Assembly (NCBI GenBank): GCA_034190305.1 | Contig: JAXHSV010000001.1 | Location: 1-56,191, forward strand | Direction: 5' to 3' | Length of the DNA stretch: 56,191 nucleotides | Source: Planctomycetota bacterium | Lineage (GTDB): Bacteria > Planctomycetota > Phycisphaerae > SM23-33 | Part shown: positions 15,590 to 53,810 of the stretch, piece after piece | Position numbering within the stretch: the first letter of the stretch is position 1 | Layout: the number at the start of each line of letters is the position of its first letter | The notes under the pieces: model-generated | The model's database searches: none | What the model saw: the letters and a program-made list of their open reading frames with translations, nothing else | What the model was told of the DNA's origin: nothing | Translations under genes and position numbers: made by a program

Positions 15590-15687
15590 TCCGTCGTAGT
15601 AAAAAAATTGAGGTCTTTCCGGTCGGTGGGTTCGTAATAGTCTGTCAATCTTAAATCTGTGAACAAAATCTTCAGACGTCGGTTTTT

Positions 15688-15769
15688 CGACACAGAGACA
15701 CAGAGGAACAGAGACATAAAAACAGATTTGTCTTTTTTCTATTCTCTGAATCTCTGCGTCTCTGTGTCG
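15688..15769. repeat. Palindromic element, CAGAGA family (copy A1)
   Basis: Arms CGACACAGAGACACAGAGGAACAGAGA and TCTCTGAATCTCTGCGTCTCTGTGTCG around an AT-rich loop. Confidence 0.85.
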
Positions 15770-15806
15770 CATAATCCTGCTGACAAATTTGAAGTTAACG
15801 GAGTAA

Positions 15807-17616: not shown

Positions 17617-17624
17617 ACCAAATC

Positions 17625-17706
17625 AATAGTCAGTAATCGGTGGTTAGTAGTCAGATAAAAGATATTTTCTTCACCGGCTACCGGCTACCATCTACCGATT
17701 ACTATT
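17625..17706. repeat. Palindromic element, GGTAGTC/GGTAGCC heptad family (copy C1)
   Basis: Arms AATAGTCAGTAATCGGTGGTTAGTAGTCAG and CCGGCTACCGGCTACCATCTACCGATTACTATT. The right arm encodes the last codons and the stop of phoH. Confidence 0.75.
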
Positions 17707-18630
17707 TTCTCCATATGCATCAACGATATTCTGCACCAGGCGGTGGCGAACAATGTCATGCCTGTCCAGGCGAATGAAAATTAATCCTTTGATGCCTTTT
17801 AGTCGGCGTGCCGAGTCGATCAATCCGCTGGTGGTATTTTCGGGCAAGTCGATCTGCGAATCGTCGCCTGTAATAATCATTTTCGACCCGTGTCCCATAC
17901 GGGTCAAGAACATCAACATCTGCGCCGGTGTGGTGTTCTGGGCTTCATCGAGGATGATTACCGAATCATTGAGCGTTCTGCCCCGCATAAACGCCAGCGG
18001 AATGACCTCGATAATGTCGTTTGCCATGAATCTGCGGGACTGCTCGAAGTCCATCATGTCGTGCAGGGCGTCGAAGAGCGGACGGAGATAAGGGTTGACC
18101 TTTGCCTGCATATCACCCGGAAGGAAGCCGAGTTTTTCGCCGGCTTCAACCGCCGGACGGGCCAGCACCATGCGTTTGGCGCGTTCCGCCTTGAGCATGT
18201 GAACCGCCATTGCCACGGCGAGGTATGTCTTTCCGGTCCCCGCCGGTCCGGTGCAGAATACCATATCATGCTTTCTTATCGCCTCGACGTACCGCCTCTG
18301 CCCCGGCGAGCGCGGGTGAACGGCCTGGCCGTTATATACAGTGATGCTCTCGGACGTATCGGAAGAATCTACTCCCGCAGACACCTCGGCCAGAGCGTCG
18401 GCCACTTCCCTGGCGCCTATGGGCTTATTGTGTCTCATCCGCCGCTGAAGAGCCGCCAGAACCGCCGCAGCGCCGGAGACACCCCTGGCCGCTCCGGTTA
18501 TCCGAACAACCCCGCCGCGGGCGAACATCTGAACGCCCATCACATGGCGTATCGTCTTGAGATGTTCATCAGCCGGTCCGAACAGAACCGAAGACCGCTC
18601 CGGCTGCTCCAGTGTAACAGTTAGTTCCAA
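17692..18630 (-). CDS. phoH: PhoH-family ATPase
   Basis: GPAGTGKTYLAVAMAV Walker A and ILDEAQN Walker B. Start proposed at the TTG at 18630 (GGAG 7 nt upstream), because the longer ORF-track N-terminus (MLRISDFES) is a translated repeat element. Confidence 0.85.
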   Translation of the reverse strand: MELTVTLEQPERSSVLFGPADEHLKTIRHVMGVQMFARGGVVRITGAARGVSGAAAVLAALQRRMRHNKPIGAREVADALAEVSAGVDSSDTSESITVYNGQAVHPRSPGQRRYVEAIRKHDMVFCTGPAGTGKTYLAVAMAVHMLKAERAKRMVLARPAVEAGEKLGFLPGDMQAKVNPYLRPLFDALHDMMDFEQSRRFMANDIIEVIPLAFMRGRTLNDSVIILDEAQNTTPAQMLMFLTRMGHGSKMIITGDDSQIDLPENTTSGLIDSARRLKGIKGLIFIRLDRHDIVRHRLVQNIVDAYGENSNR

Positions 18631-18650: not shown

Positions 18651-18816
18651 GAGATTCAAAATCCGAAATACGAAGCACGAAGGCCGAAACAATATCGAAT
18701 GACCAAAATCCGAATGTTCAAAACCCTTTCTCGGCAGGTCTTGATGAAACTTTTTTGAACATTTGAATTTCGTATTTCGAATTTGTTTCGAGTTTCGGAT
18801 TTCGATATTCGGATTT
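18651..18816. repeat. Palindromic element, AATCCGAAA heptad family (copy B1)
   Basis: The left arm contains AAATCCGAAATACGAAG...CCGAAACAATATCGAA...CCGAATGTTCAAAA. The right arm is TTTTTTGAACATTTGAATTTCGTATTTCGAATTTGTTTCGAGTTTCGGATTTCGATATTCGGATTT. Confidence 0.85.
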
Positions 18817-19691: not shown

Positions 19692-19750
19692 GCGTATATT
19701 ACAGACTCTTATCGATCAAATTGGAAGCGCAAGTCAAAAAGGAACAAACA

Positions 19751-19836
19751 AAATGATAAATGCCAAATGACAAATGTCTTGCGAGGCTGTTTTCGCCCGT
19801 TTGGCGTTTGGCATTTAACGTTTTTCATTTATCATT
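19751..19836. repeat. Palindromic element, AAATGCC heptad family (copy D1)
   Basis: Arms AAATGATAAATGCCAAATGACAAATG and CGTTTGGCGTTTGGCATTTAACGTTTTTCATTTATCATT. The right arm supplies the last codons (NNDK) and the stop of uppS. Confidence 0.75.
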
Positions 19837-20598
19837 GTTTTCAAGCCCGCCGAAGCGACGATGGCGATCGGCGAATGCTCGAATTGCCTCGCCGAAGTCC
19901 TTTTCGTCGAAGTCCGGCCAGAGTGTATCGGTTACGTAAAACTCGGCGTAAGAGACCTGCCAGAGAAGGAAGTTACTTACCCTCATCTCCCCGGCCGTTC
20001 GAATCAGCAGGTCCGGGTCGGGCAGCCCGGCTGTATCCAGCGCATCGGAGATGACCCGCTCATCGACCTGTTCTGGTGTGATTTTTCCCTCGGCTGCGCG
20101 TTCGGAAATAGCGCGAACGGCGGCGGTCAGTTCCGCACGCCCGCCGTAATTCAATGCGAGGTTCAGCCACATTCCCGTATTGTCGCGCGAGACGTCCACC
20201 GAGTGGTCCAGTTCGGTCAAGACGCTTACGGGCAATCCTTCGCGCCGACCCAGGTGGCGGAGGCGAATATTGTGCTCCATTACCGTTACTCGCTCGCGGA
20301 TGAGGTATTCGGCGTAGAGCCCCATCAGGGCGTTGACCTCGTCGCGCGGGCGCCGCCAGTTCTCTATGGAAAATGAATAGAGCGTCAGCGCTTCGAGCCC
20401 AAGACGGGCCGCTTCGGTTACGATTTTGCGAACGACCTTTGCCCCCTCGGCGTGACCGGCAGGCCTAGGCAGGCCTCGATGGGACGCCCAACGACCGTTA
20501 CCGTCCATTATAATCGCCACGTGTCGTGGAAATCGCTCCCCCGGTATGCCAATCCCGGCCCGGGCGGCAGCAACAGATTGCGGAGAAATATCGACCAT
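19825..20598 (-). CDS. uppS: Isoprenyl transferase (undecaprenyl diphosphate synthase)
   Basis: HVAIIMDGNGRWA, FSIENWRRP, RTAGEMRVSNFLLWQ. Confidence 0.9.
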   Translation of the reverse strand: MVDISPQSVAAARAGIGIPGERFPRHVAIIMDGNGRWASHRGLPRPAGHAEGAKVVRKIVTEAARLGLEALTLYSFSIENWRRPRDEVNALMGLYAEYLIRERVTVMEHNIRLRHLGRREGLPVSVLTELDHSVDVSRDNTGMWLNLALNYGGRAELTAAVRAISERAAEGKITPEQVDERVISDALDTAGLPDPDLLIRTAGEMRVSNFLLWQVSYAEFYVTDTLWPDFDEKDFGEAIRAFADRHRRFGGLENNDK

Positions 20599-25649: not shown

Positions 25650-25671
25650 ACCGGCAAACTGACATACAAGA

Positions 25672-25787
25672 GGCCACAGAGACGCAGAGAGCGCAGAGAT
25701 TAACAAGACAAAAGAAACAAAATAACGCAGGGATTTTTGATTCTATCTAACTTATTTGTTCTCTGCGCTCTCTGTGCCTCTGCGGCC
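25672..25787. repeat. Palindromic element, CAGAGA family (copy A2)
   Basis: Arms GGCCACAGAGACGCAGAGAGCGCAGAGA and TCTCTGCGCTCTCTGTGCCTCTGCGGCC. Confidence 0.85.
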
Positions 25788-25800
25788 TATTTTCCCAAAC

Positions 25801-25875
25801 TGATCCCAGCGGGATTTGAACCCGCGTTGCCGGGATGAAAACCCGGTGTCCTGGACCTGGCTAGACGATGGGATC
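25801..25875 (-). tRNA. tRNA-Glu (anticodon UUC), no encoded CCA
   Basis: GATCCCATCGTCTAGCCAGGTCCAGGACACCGGGTTTTCATCCCGGCAACGCGGGTTCAAATCCCGCTGGGATCA folds as a cloverleaf. Anticodon loop TTTTCAT, T-loop GGTTCAAATCC. Confidence 0.9.
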
Positions 25876-25917
25876 GTGTACTAGCATTCAGCAATCAGCG
25901 GTCAGCAATCAAACTGC

Positions 25918-26085
25918 AAAATCCGAAATCCGAATTTCGAAATCCGAAACAATATCGAAACTCAAATGACTAAAAAATCCAAAACATAAACAAGCATAAA
26001 TACTTGCGATGTTCGATGTTTGGAACATTAGAAAATTCGAACTTCGAATTTGTTTCGTATTTCGTATTTCGATATTCGGATTTTT
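25918..26085. repeat. Palindromic element, AATCCGAAA heptad family (copy B2), between the two tRNA genes
   Basis: The left arm is AAAATCCGAAATCCGAATTTCGAAATCCGAAACAATATCGAAAC... The right arm is ...CGAATTTGTTTCGTATTTCGTATTTCGATATTCGGATTTTT. Shares CCGAAACAATATCGAA and TTCGATATTCGGATTT with B1. Confidence 0.85.
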
Positions 26086-26089
26086 CCTG

Positions 26090-26120
26090 CTACAAACTAC
26101 CGGCTGCCGGCTACCAATTC
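26090..26120. repeat. GGTAGCC heptad family arm (C2, left of tRNA-Lys)
   Basis: CTACAAACTACCGGCTGCCGGCTACCAATTC. Complementary to the arm at 26201-26243. Confidence 0.7.
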
Positions 26121-26122
26121 AA

Positions 26123-26195
26123 TGAGGGAGCTGGGACTCGAACCCAGAACCTACGCCTTAAAAGGGCGTTGCTCTGCCAGTTGAGCTACTCCCCC
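26123..26195 (-). tRNA. tRNA-Lys (anticodon UUU), no encoded CCA
   Basis: GGGGGAGTAGCTCAACTGGCAGAGCAACGCCCTTTTAAGGCGTAGGTTCTGGGTTCGAGTCCCAGCTCCCTCA. Anticodon loop CTTTTAA. 7-bp acceptor stem with one G-U pair. Confidence 0.9.
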
Positions 26196-26200
26196 AAGCC

Positions 26201-26243
26201 ACAGACAGTAATCAGTAGCCGGTGGTCAGTAGTCGGTAAAAAA
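26201..26243. repeat. GGTAGTC/GGTAGCC heptad family arm (C2, right of tRNA-Lys)
   Basis: ACAGACAGTAATCAGTAGCCGGTGGTCAGTAGTCGGTAAAAAA. Confidence 0.7.
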
Positions 26244-26872: not shown

Positions 26873-26961
26873 TTAACCACAAAGGACACAAAGAACACAA
26901 AGAAAAGAAAGACTATTTTTGTTTTTTTACTCTTTGTGCCCTTTGTGTTCTTTGTGGTTAA
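26873..26961. repeat. Palindromic element, CAAAGA variant of the CAGAGA family (copy A')
   Basis: Arms TTAACCACAAAGGACACAAAGAACACAAAGA and CTCTTTGTGCCCTTTGTGTTCTTTGTGGTTAA. Lies in the pyrH-frr spacer. Confidence 0.85.
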
Positions 26962-27716: not shown

Positions 27717-27740
27717 TGTTTTTCTAACAAAATAATTTTC

Positions 27741-27850
27741 GCCGCAGAGGCACAGAGAGCGCAGAGATGTAAAAAATTAGAGAAAAAATAAGAAACGAAA
27801 GTCTTTTTTTGATTCTATTTATTCTCTGCGTCCTCTGCGTCTCTGCGGCC
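27741..27850. repeat. Palindromic element, CAGAGA family (copy A3), in the tsf-pyrH spacer
   Basis: Arms GCCGCAGAGGCACAGAGAGCGCAGAGA and TCTCTGCGTCCTCTGCGTCTCTGCGGC. Confidence 0.85.
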
Positions 27851-27858
27851 AATTTTCT

Positions 27859-28650
27859 TTACTGCCCGACCTGGAACCTGGCGAAGGTCGTTATCTTCGC
27901 AGCCCCCAGGATGTCCTTTACCTTTTTCTTCTCATCTCGGACGAAGGGCTGTTCCAACAGCGAGTTTGCAGCGAGGAACTTGTTTATTTTTCCGCCGACC
28001 ATTTTCTCGGCGATCTCTTTCGGTTTACCGGACTCGATTGCCTGCTCGGTTGCGATTCTCTTTTCTTTTTCGACAAGATCTGCCGGGACGTCGTCTTTGG
28101 TAAGCCCCATCGGATTGGCGAATGCGATGTGCATACACAGGTCGCTGAGGGTCTGGCTGTCGATTTCGCCGTCGATCCCCACCAATACACCGACTTTTCC
28201 GTTGTGGTGGGTGTATGAGCCGACCTTCGGCGCAGAGACCTTTACGCCTCGGACATATCGCATGTTCTCGCCGATCTTGTTGAAGCAGTCCTGGACGGCG
28301 GCGGTTATTTCATCTGTGGCCTGTATCTCGCCGTCGCCTTCTGCGCCGACGGCAAGGGCGGCGACATTTCCGACCATCGCCCTGAATTCGTCGTTGCGGG
28401 CGCAGAAATCCGTCTCGCAGACAACTTCGACCATGGCGGCCGAGCCGTTGGCTTGCCGGATGGCTACGAGTCCTTCTGCCGCTGTGCGGGCCGCCTTTGT
28501 TTCGGCGGCAGCCATTCCTTTCTTACGCAGCAGTTCAACGGCGGCTTCGACGTCTCCGCCGGTTTCCGCCAGCGCCTTTTTGCAGTCCATCATGCCCTGC
28601 CCGGTTTCGTCCCGCAGAGCCTTTACCATCTTCGCAGTAATTTCAGCCAT
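27859..28650 (-). CDS. tsf: Translation elongation factor Ts
   Basis: MAEITAKMVKALRDETGQGMMDCKKALAETGGDVEAAVELLRKKG. Confidence 0.92.
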   Translation of the reverse strand: MAEITAKMVKALRDETGQGMMDCKKALAETGGDVEAAVELLRKKGMAAAETKAARTAAEGLVAIRQANGSAAMVEVVCETDFCARNDEFRAMVGNVAALAVGAEGDGEIQATDEITAAVQDCFNKIGENMRYVRGVKVSAPKVGSYTHHNGKVGVLVGIDGEIDSQTLSDLCMHIAFANPMGLTKDDVPADLVEKEKRIATEQAIESGKPKEIAEKMVGGKINKFLAANSLLEQPFVRDEKKKVKDILGAAKITTFARFQVGQ

Positions 28651-29743: not shown

Positions 29744-29860
29744 TCTAAGCGGTCTCATGTAAGTCTTTTGGGGTGGAACAGCCTTTCCAGGCTGTATCGT
29801 CGTGAAGAACAGGCAAGAATGCCTGTTCCACCATGCAGAACTTATGTAAGACCGCTTAGA
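29744..29860. repeat. Nested composite palindrome in the long rpsB-upstream intergenic region
   Basis: Outer stem TCTAAGCGGTCT/AGACCGCTTAGA. Inner stem GGTGGAACAG/CTGTTCCACC. Local hairpins ACAGCCT-TTCC-AGGCTGT and GAACAGGCA-AGAA-TGCCTGTTC. Confidence 0.7.
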
Positions 29861-30584: not shown

Positions 30585-30656
30585 GGTAGCCGGTAGTCAG
30601 TAGTCGGTAAAGGCGGGGTGTTCTTCCCGATTACTGACTAGCGACTACTAACTACC
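30585..30656. repeat. Palindromic element, GGTAGTC/GGTAGCC heptad family (copy C3), just upstream of groES
   Basis: Arms GGTAGCCGGTAGTCAGTAGTCGGTAA and CGATTACTGACTAGCGACTACTAACTACC. Confidence 0.8.
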
Positions 30657-51789: not shown

Positions 51790-52766
51790 ATGCGAACCCG
51801 CACCTTTCGCTATAAGAATCTATAAGAATCTATAAGAATCTATAAGAATCCTATCTACAGCCTCGCAATCGACGCCATCCGAGACTGCCAGATTACCGAA
51901 GTTGACGGCGTGTACTACCTGACAGGAACCAGCCCGCCCGTCTGGGGGGAAGGGCCGAACCCGGGAGTCAAATTGTACTCCTCGCCGGACCTGCTGAACT
52001 GGAAGTTTGAGACGTTCCTTACAGACCGGGCCGGACTGGACCCGGGCGTGTGGTATTACGACCGGTTCTGGGCGCCGGAAATCCACCGCAAGGATGGGCG
52101 GTTCTGGCTGACGTTCAACTGCCGCAACGAAACCGCCGAAATACCATACCCTCATTCGTCCGGCCTGGCGGTGGCAGATAGCATCACCGGTCCTTACGAA
52201 ATACTCACGCACGACAAGCCCCTGATTGACCGAACGAACGATGCAACCCTGTTCGCGGACGATGACGGAAGGACATACATCTACGTTACCGGCATCATAG
52301 GCTGGGAGATGAACCTGGAGGCGTGCAGGCTGATTGACGGGCCTTTTTAAAGTCGCCGGGGCGCTGGGACGGCATCGGCATAGAAGGCCCGTTTGTAATC
52401 AAGCGGGACGGCATGTATTACATGTTCTATTCCTCGTGGACGCGGGGATATGAAGTCGGCTATGCGACCGCGTCTCACCCCAAAGGCCCCTGGAAAAAGT
52501 ACGAAGGAAACCCGATATTCGGGGCGCAGAACAGAAAAACCTGTGCAGGATACGGCGGACGGTTCACGGGGAACCCCCCCGGCTGCCCGTACGCCGCAGC
52601 CGGGCACAACGCAATATTCACCGGTCCGGACGGACGAGGCTGGATCGTCTGCCACTACCAGGAAACAGACAAGCCCGATTCCCTCGGCTTCGACCCGATA
52701 TGGATCGAAGACGGCGTCATCAAAACCAACGGCCCGACCTGGACCGAACAGACAATCGAAATTTGA
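51790..52766 (+). pseudogene. GH43-family glycoside hydrolase, disrupted by a 10-bp x4 tandem repeat (in-frame TAA) and a frameshift near 52344-52351
   Basis: ATG at 51790 (MRTRTFRYKN) is in the same frame as NPIYSLAIDAIRDCQITEVDGVYYLTG, but TAA at 51823-51825 lies inside the repeat. The second half (FLKSPGRWDGIGIEGPFVIKRDGMYYMFYSSW...) resumes in the -1 frame at a T5A3 run. Confidence 0.8.
51810..51849 (+). repeat. Perfect tandem repeat (CTATAAGAAT) x4
   Basis: Read directly from the sequence. The unit equals codons 8-10 of the GH43 ORF. Confidence 0.95.
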
Positions 52767-52806: not shown

Positions 52807-53413
52807 ATGAACCGATGGACAATTATGCTATTCGTAACGGCTGCTGTAATCGTCGGATGCAGGGAAAAGTTTCAAGACAATGCAACATCCCGTATTTACA
52901 ACGAACTTGAGCATAGGAAGCAGGAAGTTATCGACCTTCGAGCAGCCAGTCCGATCAGGGAGGACAATCCGCTTTTCGACAGTTACGAGGTGGAGGCTGC
53001 CAATTCACTTGCCCGGCTGGCCAAGGGGGTGGATCTTGCCGGGGCAAACGACTACTTCGGGAAGTGGGGTCCCGCCCGCGACCGGAGCCAGAACCACGAC
53101 AACTTCACCTACACATTCTGGATATGGGGACTACAGGCTTGCTTTCCGTCTTACCGGTCCGGAAAGTAGAAAAACGTTTTTCATCGAGACCAAAACTTCG
53201 ATTAAAGGCTGGTTGCCCGATAGCAAGATCGAGTTTACCGAGTTACTCAAAATACCGGACGATCTCAAGCCGGGCCGATACAAACTCGCACTCGCTGTTG
53301 TTGAGTCGGAAACGGAAAATCCCGCCGTCCGTTTGGCAATAACCGGCCGAGCAAGGGATGGCTGGTATCATATCAGCGAGTTTGACGTGACGGCGCTCGG
53401 CGCGAAAAGATAG
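52807..53413 (+). pseudogene. DUF4832-like lipoprotein, frameshifted at a G4 run (53126-53129)
   Basis: Lipobox-like MLFVTAAVIVGC at the N-terminus. FTYTFWIWG continues in the +1 frame as DYRLAFRLTGPE...LKPGRYKLALAVVE...GWYHISEFDV. Confidence 0.65.
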
Positions 53414-53583
53414 CGTAAGGTATTTTGTGTAAGTTTGCGGCGGCATCAGAAATGACGAACAAGTTATAACGCCAGACCCAGCCCAGCCATAGCCATGGCT
53501 GGGCTGTAATGTCCGCTCTTCGACCGATTTTGCGAAAACCTGCGGTTGTCCGCTTTCGGAACTTACACAAAATACTTGACGCT
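53412..53583. repeat. MITE-like unit: 24-bp terminal inverted repeats enclosing a GCCCAGCCAT hairpin (H4)
   Basis: AGCGTAAGGTATTTTGTGTAAGTT (53412-53435) versus AACTTACACAAAATACTTGACGCT (53560-53583), 22/24 complementary. Internal CAGCCCAGCCAT-AGCC-ATGGCTGGGCTG at 53479-53506. Confidence 0.6.
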
Positions 53584-53810
53584 ATCGAGTGTTTCAGCCA
53601 TTTGTGATGTCCTTTCGCAACGAATATAATCTCGACATGAATCTTGCGCCCGGGCCTGTCCCGCCGGCAGCATAAATATGCAGGAACAACCTCCGCCGGG
53701 GCAAGAAAAAGATGTGGATTAATCATTACTGGTTGCAAAAATGACGGCTTCGGGGCATGATATAGTTACAGTTTGCTACCCGATCAAAACAGGTGAAAGG
53801 ATTCCGATAA

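Follow-up and report, generated by a model that had tools for sequence, protein, structure and literature searches.

The 56,191-nt stretch of contig JAXHSV010000001.1 (assembly GCA_034190305.1, positions 1 to 56,191 of the forward strand), called the window here, comes from a Planctomycetota bacterium, and protein matches place it in the Phycisphaerae. Part of its gene order reads pyrH-frr-tRNALys-B2-tRNAGlu-CAAX protease ... uppS-cdsA-B1-phoH-HD, where B1 and B2 are hairpin elements built on CGAA blocks that return every 7 nt. The genes flanking B1 and B2 are all on the minus strand. B1 fills the spacer between cdsA (CTP_transf_1) and phoH, with 11 nt separating it from the preceding stop codon of cdsA and 28 nt from the following start of phoH, a TTG at 18630 that matches the gene model on record. 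B2 is located between tRNA-Lys (26122-26196) and tRNA-Glu (25801-25875). With no gene of their own and a place outside rRNA, B1 and B2 are new members of a family of heptad hairpin cassettes of the intervening-sequence (IVS) type. The full-length element of this family consists of two inverted CGAA-heptad arms around a 121-aa four-helix-bundle (4HB) gene. Probably, B1 and B2 are copies, without an open reading frame (ORF), of a selfish hairpin element of this type that spreads horizontally.

Architecture and fold of B1 and B2

A first-pass annotation, made from the letters alone, had placed the elements at 18651-18816 and 25918-26085. Our boundaries agree closely with these positions (minus-strand arms are given in the minus-strand reading).

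18659-18816: B1, a complete CGAA-heptad hairpin element of 158 nt without an ORF, from family-pattern and profile match and fold
18659..18692, plus strand: B1 outer arm, AAATCCGAA ATA CGAA GCA CGAA GGC CGAAACAA, matching the pattern without mismatch
18693..18782: inner arms and variable loop of B1, the inner arms with AATGACCAAAAT / GTTCAAAAC-type motifs
18783..18816, minus strand: B1 outer arm, AAATCCGAA TAT CGAA ATC CGAA ACT CGAAACAA, matching the pattern
25919-26083: B2, a complete CGAA-heptad hairpin element of 165 nt without an ORF, from family-pattern and profile match and fold
25919..25952, plus strand: B2 outer arm, AAATCCGAA ATC CGAA TTT CGAA ATC CGAAACAA, matching the pattern
26050..26083, minus strand: B2 outer arm, AAATCCGAA TAT CGAA ATA CGAA ATA CGAAACAA, matching the pattern

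All four outer arms fit, with 0 mismatches, the family arm pattern AAATCCGAA-N3-CGAA-N3-CGAA-N3-CGAAACAA (full form AAATCCGAANNNCGAANNNCGAANNNCGAAACAA), which had 0 matches in 100 shuffles of the window. The looser pattern CGAA-N3-CGAA-N3-CGAA (CGAANNNCGAANNNCGAA), which only asks for CGAA every 7 nt, had 12 matches vs 0.98 expected, and all 12 are within B1 and B2. The heptad arms described at first are CGAA blocks at a 7-nt period. Lag-7 self-identity in the arms is 0.57, and the units are heterogeneous (CGAA plus N3) rather than perfect tandem repeats. The 16-mers CCGAAACAATATCGAA and TTCGATATTCGGATTT, which had been singled out as shared blocks, each occur exactly in B1 and in B2. When both strands of the two elements were aligned, the conserved columns were the CGAA/TTCG blocks, the termini and an 8-base CGAAACAA/TTGTTTCG block. 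Fold prediction, which the first-pass annotation had proposed as a check, gave a single long imperfect hairpin for each element, with -57.9 kcal/mol for B1 (z = -5.0 vs dinucleotide shuffles) and -61.0 kcal/mol for B2 (z = -6.7). Both are stable stem-loops with complementary termini, a feature of IVSs.

A profile made solely from copies outside the window found exactly the four B1 and B2 arms there, with E values of 1e-14 to 1e-16, and nothing else; therefore the window holds two copies, as had been counted before. No PF05635 four-helix-bundle gene was found in the window. No Rfam family matches B1 or B2; in the window just tRNAs reach the gathering threshold, and the best Rfam matches on B1 are miRNA models at chance level. 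Scans for sigma-70 promoters and intrinsic terminators gave consensus matches that are not above chance.

Distribution of the family and its gene-carrying copies

The exact 25-base arm pattern was searched on both strands of a 596 Gb collection holding one genome per species. It occurs on at least 120 contigs from at least 10 bacterial phyla, against a chance expectation of about 0.001 (1.2e12 positions / 4^25, our own estimate). The carriers are labelled Planctomycetota (Gemmataceae, Pirellulales, Phycisphaerae, Sedimentisphaerales), Desulfobacterota, Patescibacteria or Candidate Phyla Radiation (CPR), Aminicenantes, Omnitrophota, Verrucomicrobiota, Kiritimatiellia, Nitrospirota, Calditrichota, Binatia and others, and nine predicted viral contigs have ORF-less copies. 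The GC content of the flanks ranges from 0.34 to 0.73, and that of the outer arms is 0.36 +/- 0.03, so the hosts truly differ. Eleven arm matches are at contig ends, as would be predicted for an assembly-breaking repeat.

Complete palindromic elements were recovered in 95 cases, 90 of them short (97-269 nt) and 5 long (467-615 nt). The short elements have a median folding z of -5.0, and their termini are paired in 79/90. Element ends are sharp, AAAT(C/T)CGAA...TTCG(G/A)ATTT, and the flanking DNA is unrelated. The first-pass annotation had staked its family on further copies and on pairing between the arms; there are at least 120 copies elsewhere and the termini do pair, but the 3-nt spacers between CGAA blocks are mismatched beyond chance.

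The five long elements have a 121-aa ORF between the arms, and its ATG lies within the inner-arm motif (CGAATGAC...AAATTCAAAAC), the family consensus of which includes this start codon. It is the sole ORF type in the long copies, and no catalytic ORF was found in the elements. The cassette protein belongs to PF05635, "23S rRNA-intervening sequence protein", and TIGR02436, "four helix bundle protein", and is S23p/Avd-like; the solved structure nearest to it by sequence is 2RLD. Protein clusters matching it at E <= 1e-10 number at least 8000, many of them on very short contigs. Two loci picked by protein similarity alone, L121 and L129, also have 4HB genes flanked by CGAA heptad arms. In both loci the gene is inside a polysaccharide-export operon (Wzz/Poly_export), between co-directional genes and in the same orientation. 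The S23p/PF05635 ORF that IVSs may contain is thus present at the family level (five long copies, L121 and L129), and B1 and B2 carry none. Short copies such as these keep the arms and the inner-arm motifs and lack the ORF, and we infer from the shared inner-arm motifs that B1 and B2 are gene-less derivatives of ORF-bearing elements. PADLOC assigned no defence system, and neither a reverse transcriptase nor a template or variable repeat adjoins the elements examined.

Copies occupy tight intergenic spacers, tRNA-adjacent sites and apical loops of 23S rRNA helices. Among 62 elements, 43 are between co-directional, 13 between convergent and 6 between divergent genes, often 1-80 nt from ORFs, and 6/11 tRNA genes in the loci and the window together are 300 nt or less from an element. 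Target-site duplications were not found; for the best direct repeat in the flanks the mean length was 2.2 nt vs 1.9 in shuffles, and all are 5 nt or shorter. Insertion into pre-existing hairpin loops was considered as a general rule and rejected, the complementarity of the flanks being no higher than in shuffled pairs (p = 0.13). Single cases of insertion in hairpin loops are B2, L036 and L039, and nested hairpins occur in L233 and L089.

Members inside 23S rRNA

Locus L039, from a Saccharibacteria metagenome-assembled genome (MAG; CAZUCU010000009.1, 3425-6545), contains a 23S rRNA gene found by Rfam. Four CGAA elements are within this gene, each in place of a helix tip, at about E. coli positions 131-174, 280, 549-558 and 1872-1888. 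Therefore, the family includes true IVSs. The first and third of these positions are in the regions of helices 9 and 25, where IVSs are known to occur. A fifth CGAA copy lies just upstream of the 23S gene, and two additional hairpin insertions in the gene have GCGAGAA heptad arms, which makes six insertions in all. Each insertion is bracketed by small CATCACAC..GTGTGATG and CATCG..CGATG hairpins. The alignment to E. coli 23S ends at about position 1931 and is followed by an ORF, so another large insertion is likely. B1 and B2 themselves are outside rRNA. A preprint on rRNA insertions in CPR bacteria described insertions in 16S and 23S with 23S_rRNA_IVP ORFs, located mainly at a stem-loop's top or base; a text search of the same preprint gave no mention of repeats.

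Presence and absence in relatives

The spacers that hold B1 and B2 were compared with the equivalent spacers of relatives.

L138/L139 (PhoH 88% identical to that of the window): cdsA-phoH spacer empty, 31 nt
L136 (PhoH 91%): B1 orthologue at the same point, with flanks shared with the window (gtatgaagcgg ... tgaat), near-identical outer arms and a divergent loop
L140 (PhoH 83%): cdsA-phoH spacer, 1840-1990, where a different, GC-rich non-periodic palindrome (GGTGGCACGGTCAAG...CTTGACCGTGCCACC) replaces B1
L231 (RRF 88%): tRNA-Lys/tRNA-Glu spacer without B2, with a GGTAGTC/GACTACC heptad hairpin instead
L233 (RRF 84%): tRNA-Lys/tRNA-Glu spacer without B2, with a different hairpin
Window 25876..25918, minus (transcribed) strand: 3' half of an older heptad hairpin of GATTGCT/GACCGCT units, with B2 nested in its loop
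Window 26084..26121, minus strand: the matching place in L231 has the GGTAGTC/GACTACC hairpin and no B2

B1 and B2 are thus lineage-specific insertions. Filled and empty cdsA-phoH spacers are too diverged to fix the exact insertion point of B1. B2 sits in the loop of an L231-like hairpin: with B2 removed, the spacer folds with -24.8 kcal/mol on the minus (transcribed) strand vs -13.9 kcal/mol on the plus strand. The sporadic distribution that marks horizontally transferred IVSs is found here too, as the elements occur in many phyla and are present or absent among close relatives. The neighbouring tRNA-Lys is itself bracketed by complementary heptad arms (CTACCGGCTGCCGGCTACC / GTAGCCGGTGGTCAGTAG, at 26091-26119 and 26210-26238), an arrangement that resembles a tRNA-enclosing processing stem.

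Heptad arms around other four-helix-bundle genes

Heptad arms are not confined to the CGAA family. The phoH-HD spacer of the window (17617-17691) has a short hairpin with GGTAGCC heptad arms, and that of L138 has GGTAATT heptads. In L136 and L140, the same spacer contains a classic 4HB gene (123-126 aa, PF05635 + PF22296 bAvd) with inverted GGGACTA heptad arms. Thus, orthologous spacers of relatives have differing heptad hairpins, with or without a gene. The classic protein is 26% identical to the CGAA-family protein, and its subfamily also matches the PHROG 'Avd protein of DGR' (diversity-generating retroelement).

We fetched 80 metagenome loci with the classic 4HB protein and scored the 65 that had both flanks. 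Lag-7 self-identity was 0.355 upstream and 0.362 downstream of the gene, compared with 0.244 at 450-600 nt away and 0.261 inside the ORF, and lag 7 was top-scoring in 32/65 upstream flanks, 43/65 downstream flanks and 3/101 controls. The units are diverse (GGGGAGT, GGTCGTC, TAGCGTA, GGCTCTC, GGTAAGT, AGCCACT and others). Protein identity is 75% within a heptad type vs 53% between types (permutation p < 0.0005). As 4HB clades track heptad type, the arms and the gene are inherited as one cassette.

The first-pass annotation had also proposed a superfamily defined by structure rather than sequence, which would join B1 and B2 to CAGAGA-type palindromes of the window. For the 7-nt families our results support this proposal: two homologous PF05635 subfamilies have inverted arms with a 7-nt period, and their units are unrelated (CGAAATC-type vs others). 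The tie to CAGAGA/CACAGAG is not shown. The period in that family is 8-9 nt, and the 1.0 Mb of DNA surrounding 118 of its copies on viral contigs gave no 4HB gene, so its membership of a gene-linked superfamily is unsupported.

Further hairpins were observed in the window. Palindromes of the CAGAGA/CACAGAG family, in which the period is 8-9 nt and the loop A-rich/T-rich, are at 25668-25791, 27730-27860 and 15683-15774 of the window; the family is very common, with more than 120 loci in IMG/VR and up to 9 copies per contig. The pyrH-frr spacer (26873-26961) has a hairpin of CACAAAG (9-nt) units, which is conserved at the same site in L231 and L233; the loop of the L233 copy encloses a GATTTTT heptad hairpin. 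Hairpins with periodic arms are also at 19747-19841 and 30586-30648, with AAATGNC heptads and GTAGCCGGTAGTCAGTAGTCGG units, and about ten periodic-armed hairpins are between 15 and 31 kb of the window. A long non-periodic palindrome at 29744-29860 has 52-nt arms that are 73% complementary around a 13-nt loop (TCTAAGCGGTCTCATGTAAGTC...). Elsewhere in the window are a perfect tandem repeat of CTATAAGAAT in 4.1 copies (51810-51850) and an inverted-repeat set (53243-53586) that includes a 27-nt pair, 93% complementary and 124 nt apart (GATAGCGTAAGGTATTTTGTGTAAGTT).

Comparison with known systems

The 23S IVSs with an S23p ORF, known from Leptospira, Coxiella and others, have inverted-repeat borders, are cut by RNase III and are regarded as selfish and horizontally acquired (PMC4990558). 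The CGAA family shares with them terminal inverted repeats that form a long stem, the optional PF05635 4HB ORF of about 120 aa in the loop, the sporadic and horizontally acquired distribution and, in Saccharibacteria, positions in 23S apical loops. It differs in the setting of B1 and B2, one in a spacer of an mRNA operon and the other between tRNA genes, in their lack of an ORF, and in that the Coxiella stem is a near-perfect 28-bp duplex, whereas the CGAA arms are heptad-periodic with regular mismatches.

Another likeness is to the heptamer repeats of bacterial genomes. The STRRs (short tandemly repeated repetitive sequences) of heterocyst-forming cyanobacteria have the units CCCCAGT, TTGGTCA and CAACAGT; they have been reported to form hairpins and to occur in the RNase P RNA gene. 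The host here is one of the Phycisphaerae rather than a cyanobacterium and the units are others, although TTGGTCA does occur within the inner arm (TTTTGGTCATT). Intergenic STRR hairpins are reported from cyanobacteria (PMC2670836). Of the 186 GGGAATC arrays in Xanthomonas, 70 occur as convergent pairs, GGGGA(C/T)T is the unit in Nostoc, and the authors state that they had no detailed literature on repeats of this length to draw on (PMC4692102). TAACTGA heptamer repeats are found in Beggiatoaceae (PMC4679880) and heptanucleotide elements in Geobacter (PMC2700814). B1 and B2 likewise consist of intergenic 7-nt units in tandem that are able to form hairpins, with the units heterogeneous. Common to both groups are inverted stem-loop pairs, which in the heptamer repeats are often convergent, length and sequence that vary between close relatives, and the same heptamer in distant phyla with no known transfer mechanism. 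The heptamer repeats are tandem arrays of one unit, whereas here CGAA is followed by a variable triplet, a conserved non-periodic inner arm follows the heptads, and there is the link to a gene. The text of PMC4692102 contains neither 'S23' nor 'four helix', and that of PMC4679880 does not contain 'four helix'. A literature search of limited coverage found no paper linking heptamer repeats or STRR to PF05635 genes or IVSs, so a prior description is possible; a search for the arm sequence, equally limited in coverage, gave no match.

The short copies also resemble MITEs, the miniature inverted-repeat transposable elements, in their length of 100-270 nt, terminal inverted repeats, many intergenic copies and presence/absence polymorphism, and in that short forms far outnumber gene-carrying forms (90 to 5 in our sample). 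They are unlike MITEs in that no target-site duplication was found, the long form has a gene other than a transposase, copies are spread over several phyla and the arms are periodic. Repetitive extragenic palindromes and their mosaics (REP/BIME, or REPIN) are species-specific palindromes of 20-40 nt with the transposase RAYT, in contrast to the 97-269 nt and cross-phylum distribution of the present elements. As to the protein, Avd is described as similar to S23 proteins and as an RNA stem-loop binder (10.1101/2023.10.23.563531), and further as a pentameric barrel of positive charge that works together with structured RNA in DGRs (10.1101/2023.10.23.563531; PMC10053308). The cassette protein is in the same fold family, but the elements examined have no reverse transcriptase, template or variable repeat next to them and no PADLOC match.

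Proposed mechanism and alternative explanations

If B1 and B2 are IVS-type selfish elements, each would be co-transcribed with its host operon and would form one long hairpin with imperfect pairing. As with the 23S IVSs, which RNase III removes from the precursor RNA without ligation, this hairpin is probably excised, or cut within, by that enzyme. Such cutting would part the flanking RNAs (cdsA from phoH, tRNA-Lys from tRNA-Glu) at little cost, and the insertions may be tolerated because hairpin processing would make them cheap. The 4HB protein is homologous to Avd, the DGR factor that binds RNA, and is itself a probable binder of the periodic hairpin; in light of this homology, it is plausible that the cassette protein binds its own arms.

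Several points weigh against this explanation. We infer hairpin transcription and RNase III cutting from the analogy with 23S IVSs. No orientation bias relative to the flanking genes was found (13 vs 13), and sense and antisense folds are not significantly different (-51.3 vs -49.0 kcal/mol, p = 0.07). As there is no such folding difference, a strand-specific RNA role or selection is unsupported; in classic cassettes, the strand test of G·U vs C·A gave 221 vs 286, if anything opposite to what such selection would produce. The outer arms consist of 4-6-bp helices separated by 3x3 mismatches, and this broken pairing makes them a poor classical RNase III substrate. The mirrored 3-nt spacers have 276 Watson-Crick positions vs 329 +/- 15 in shuffled arm pairs (z = -3.6). 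This hints that the CGAA blocks are constrained as sequence rather than by pairing and, therefore, a DNA- or protein-recognition model stays alive. Target-site duplication, general complementarity of the flanks and a catalytic protein were all looked for and not found. The taxonomy labels of MAGs may suffer from binning errors. The direction of derivation may also be the reverse, a hairpin having captured a gene.

A DNA-level model of this kind would take the arms as inverted arrays of protein-binding sites, CGAA every 7 bp, on double-stranded DNA, with the hairpin potential merely a by-product of the inverted sites. The binder could be a recombinase or transposase supplied in trans, as for MITEs, the 4HB protein itself or a nucleoid protein. 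This would fit the invariant CGAA blocks, the spacers between them that are anti-correlated instead of complementary, the lack of any orientation or strand preference with respect to host transcription, and the tracking of heptad type by protein clade, as well as the MITE-like sharp conserved termini, many copies and presence/absence polymorphism. We nevertheless consider it unlikely. There is no target-site duplication, and the sole ORF inside is a 121-aa helical bundle whose families (PF05635/TIGR02436) are not known enzymes. Pairing is good in the inner arms, and 79/90 elements have paired termini. Moreover, copies are within 23S rRNA helices, which makes an RNA-level fate unavoidable.

An RNA element that benefits the host is still less probable, in our estimation a small chance. 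Here the hairpins would serve polycistronic transcripts by stabilising or punctuating them, be it as sites of processing, as barriers to exonucleases or as couplers of translation; for STRR hairpins, a rise in transcript stability or a coupling of translation has been proposed (PMC2670836). Tight operon and tRNA spacers, the 43/62 elements between co-directional genes, often 1-80 nt from ORFs, and the near identity of the B1 outer arms between orthologues with a diverged loop would all agree with such a role. However, close relatives have no elements at equivalent sites, one sequence is found in unrelated genes, phyla and viral contigs, and there is neither an orientation preference nor a promoter or terminator consensus above chance. 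Replication slippage, by which independent simple-sequence repeats without common descent would be palindromic by chance, can practically be dismissed. It is true that heptamers have been reported as the most abundant class of long simple-sequence repeats in many bacteria and that polymerase slippage has been proposed for them (PMC4679880; PMC4692102), but the shared pattern has non-periodic parts (CGAAACAA, AATGACCAAAA, GTTCAAAAC), recurs exactly in at least 120 contigs vs about 0.001 expected, and is linked to one gene family. A slippage origin is contradicted by these exact arm matches, the spread across phyla, the heterogeneous heptads within one arm and the profile hits.

Implications

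The selfish IVS-type reading of B1 and B2 connects three observations that have long been separate: 23S IVSs that carry S23p, the excess of intergenic heptamers, and a 4HB family without a function that includes Avd. The connection is based on arms with a 7-nt period in two subfamilies, the common gene-less copies, the mRNA, tRNA and rRNA settings and the occurrence in at least 10 phyla. A single phenomenon behind the heptamer repeats, the IVSs and the 4HB/Avd-like family is supported, although not proven. Tentatively, and as a possibility that falls well short of probable when all its parts are taken jointly, heptad arms with a PF05635 gene may form one widespread, unrecognised class of selfish cassettes. 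Its gene-less derivatives would be STRR, the Xanthomonas GGGAATC, the Beggiatoaceae TAACTGA and the Geobacter repeats, and its rRNA members the classical 23S IVSs; the pentameric protein would read its own 7-nt periodic duplex and aid copying or insertion, possibly with a reverse transcriptase as Avd does in DGRs. Under this unifying model, every family of heptamers would be predicted to include master copies that carry the gene.

On the practical side, the elements break metagenome assemblies and lengthen the rRNA genes of CPR bacteria. They also offer a candidate nucleic-acid partner for an orphan 4HB protein family, and a testable origin for bacterial heptamer repeats that may help to explain 7-base repeats for which there has been no explanation.

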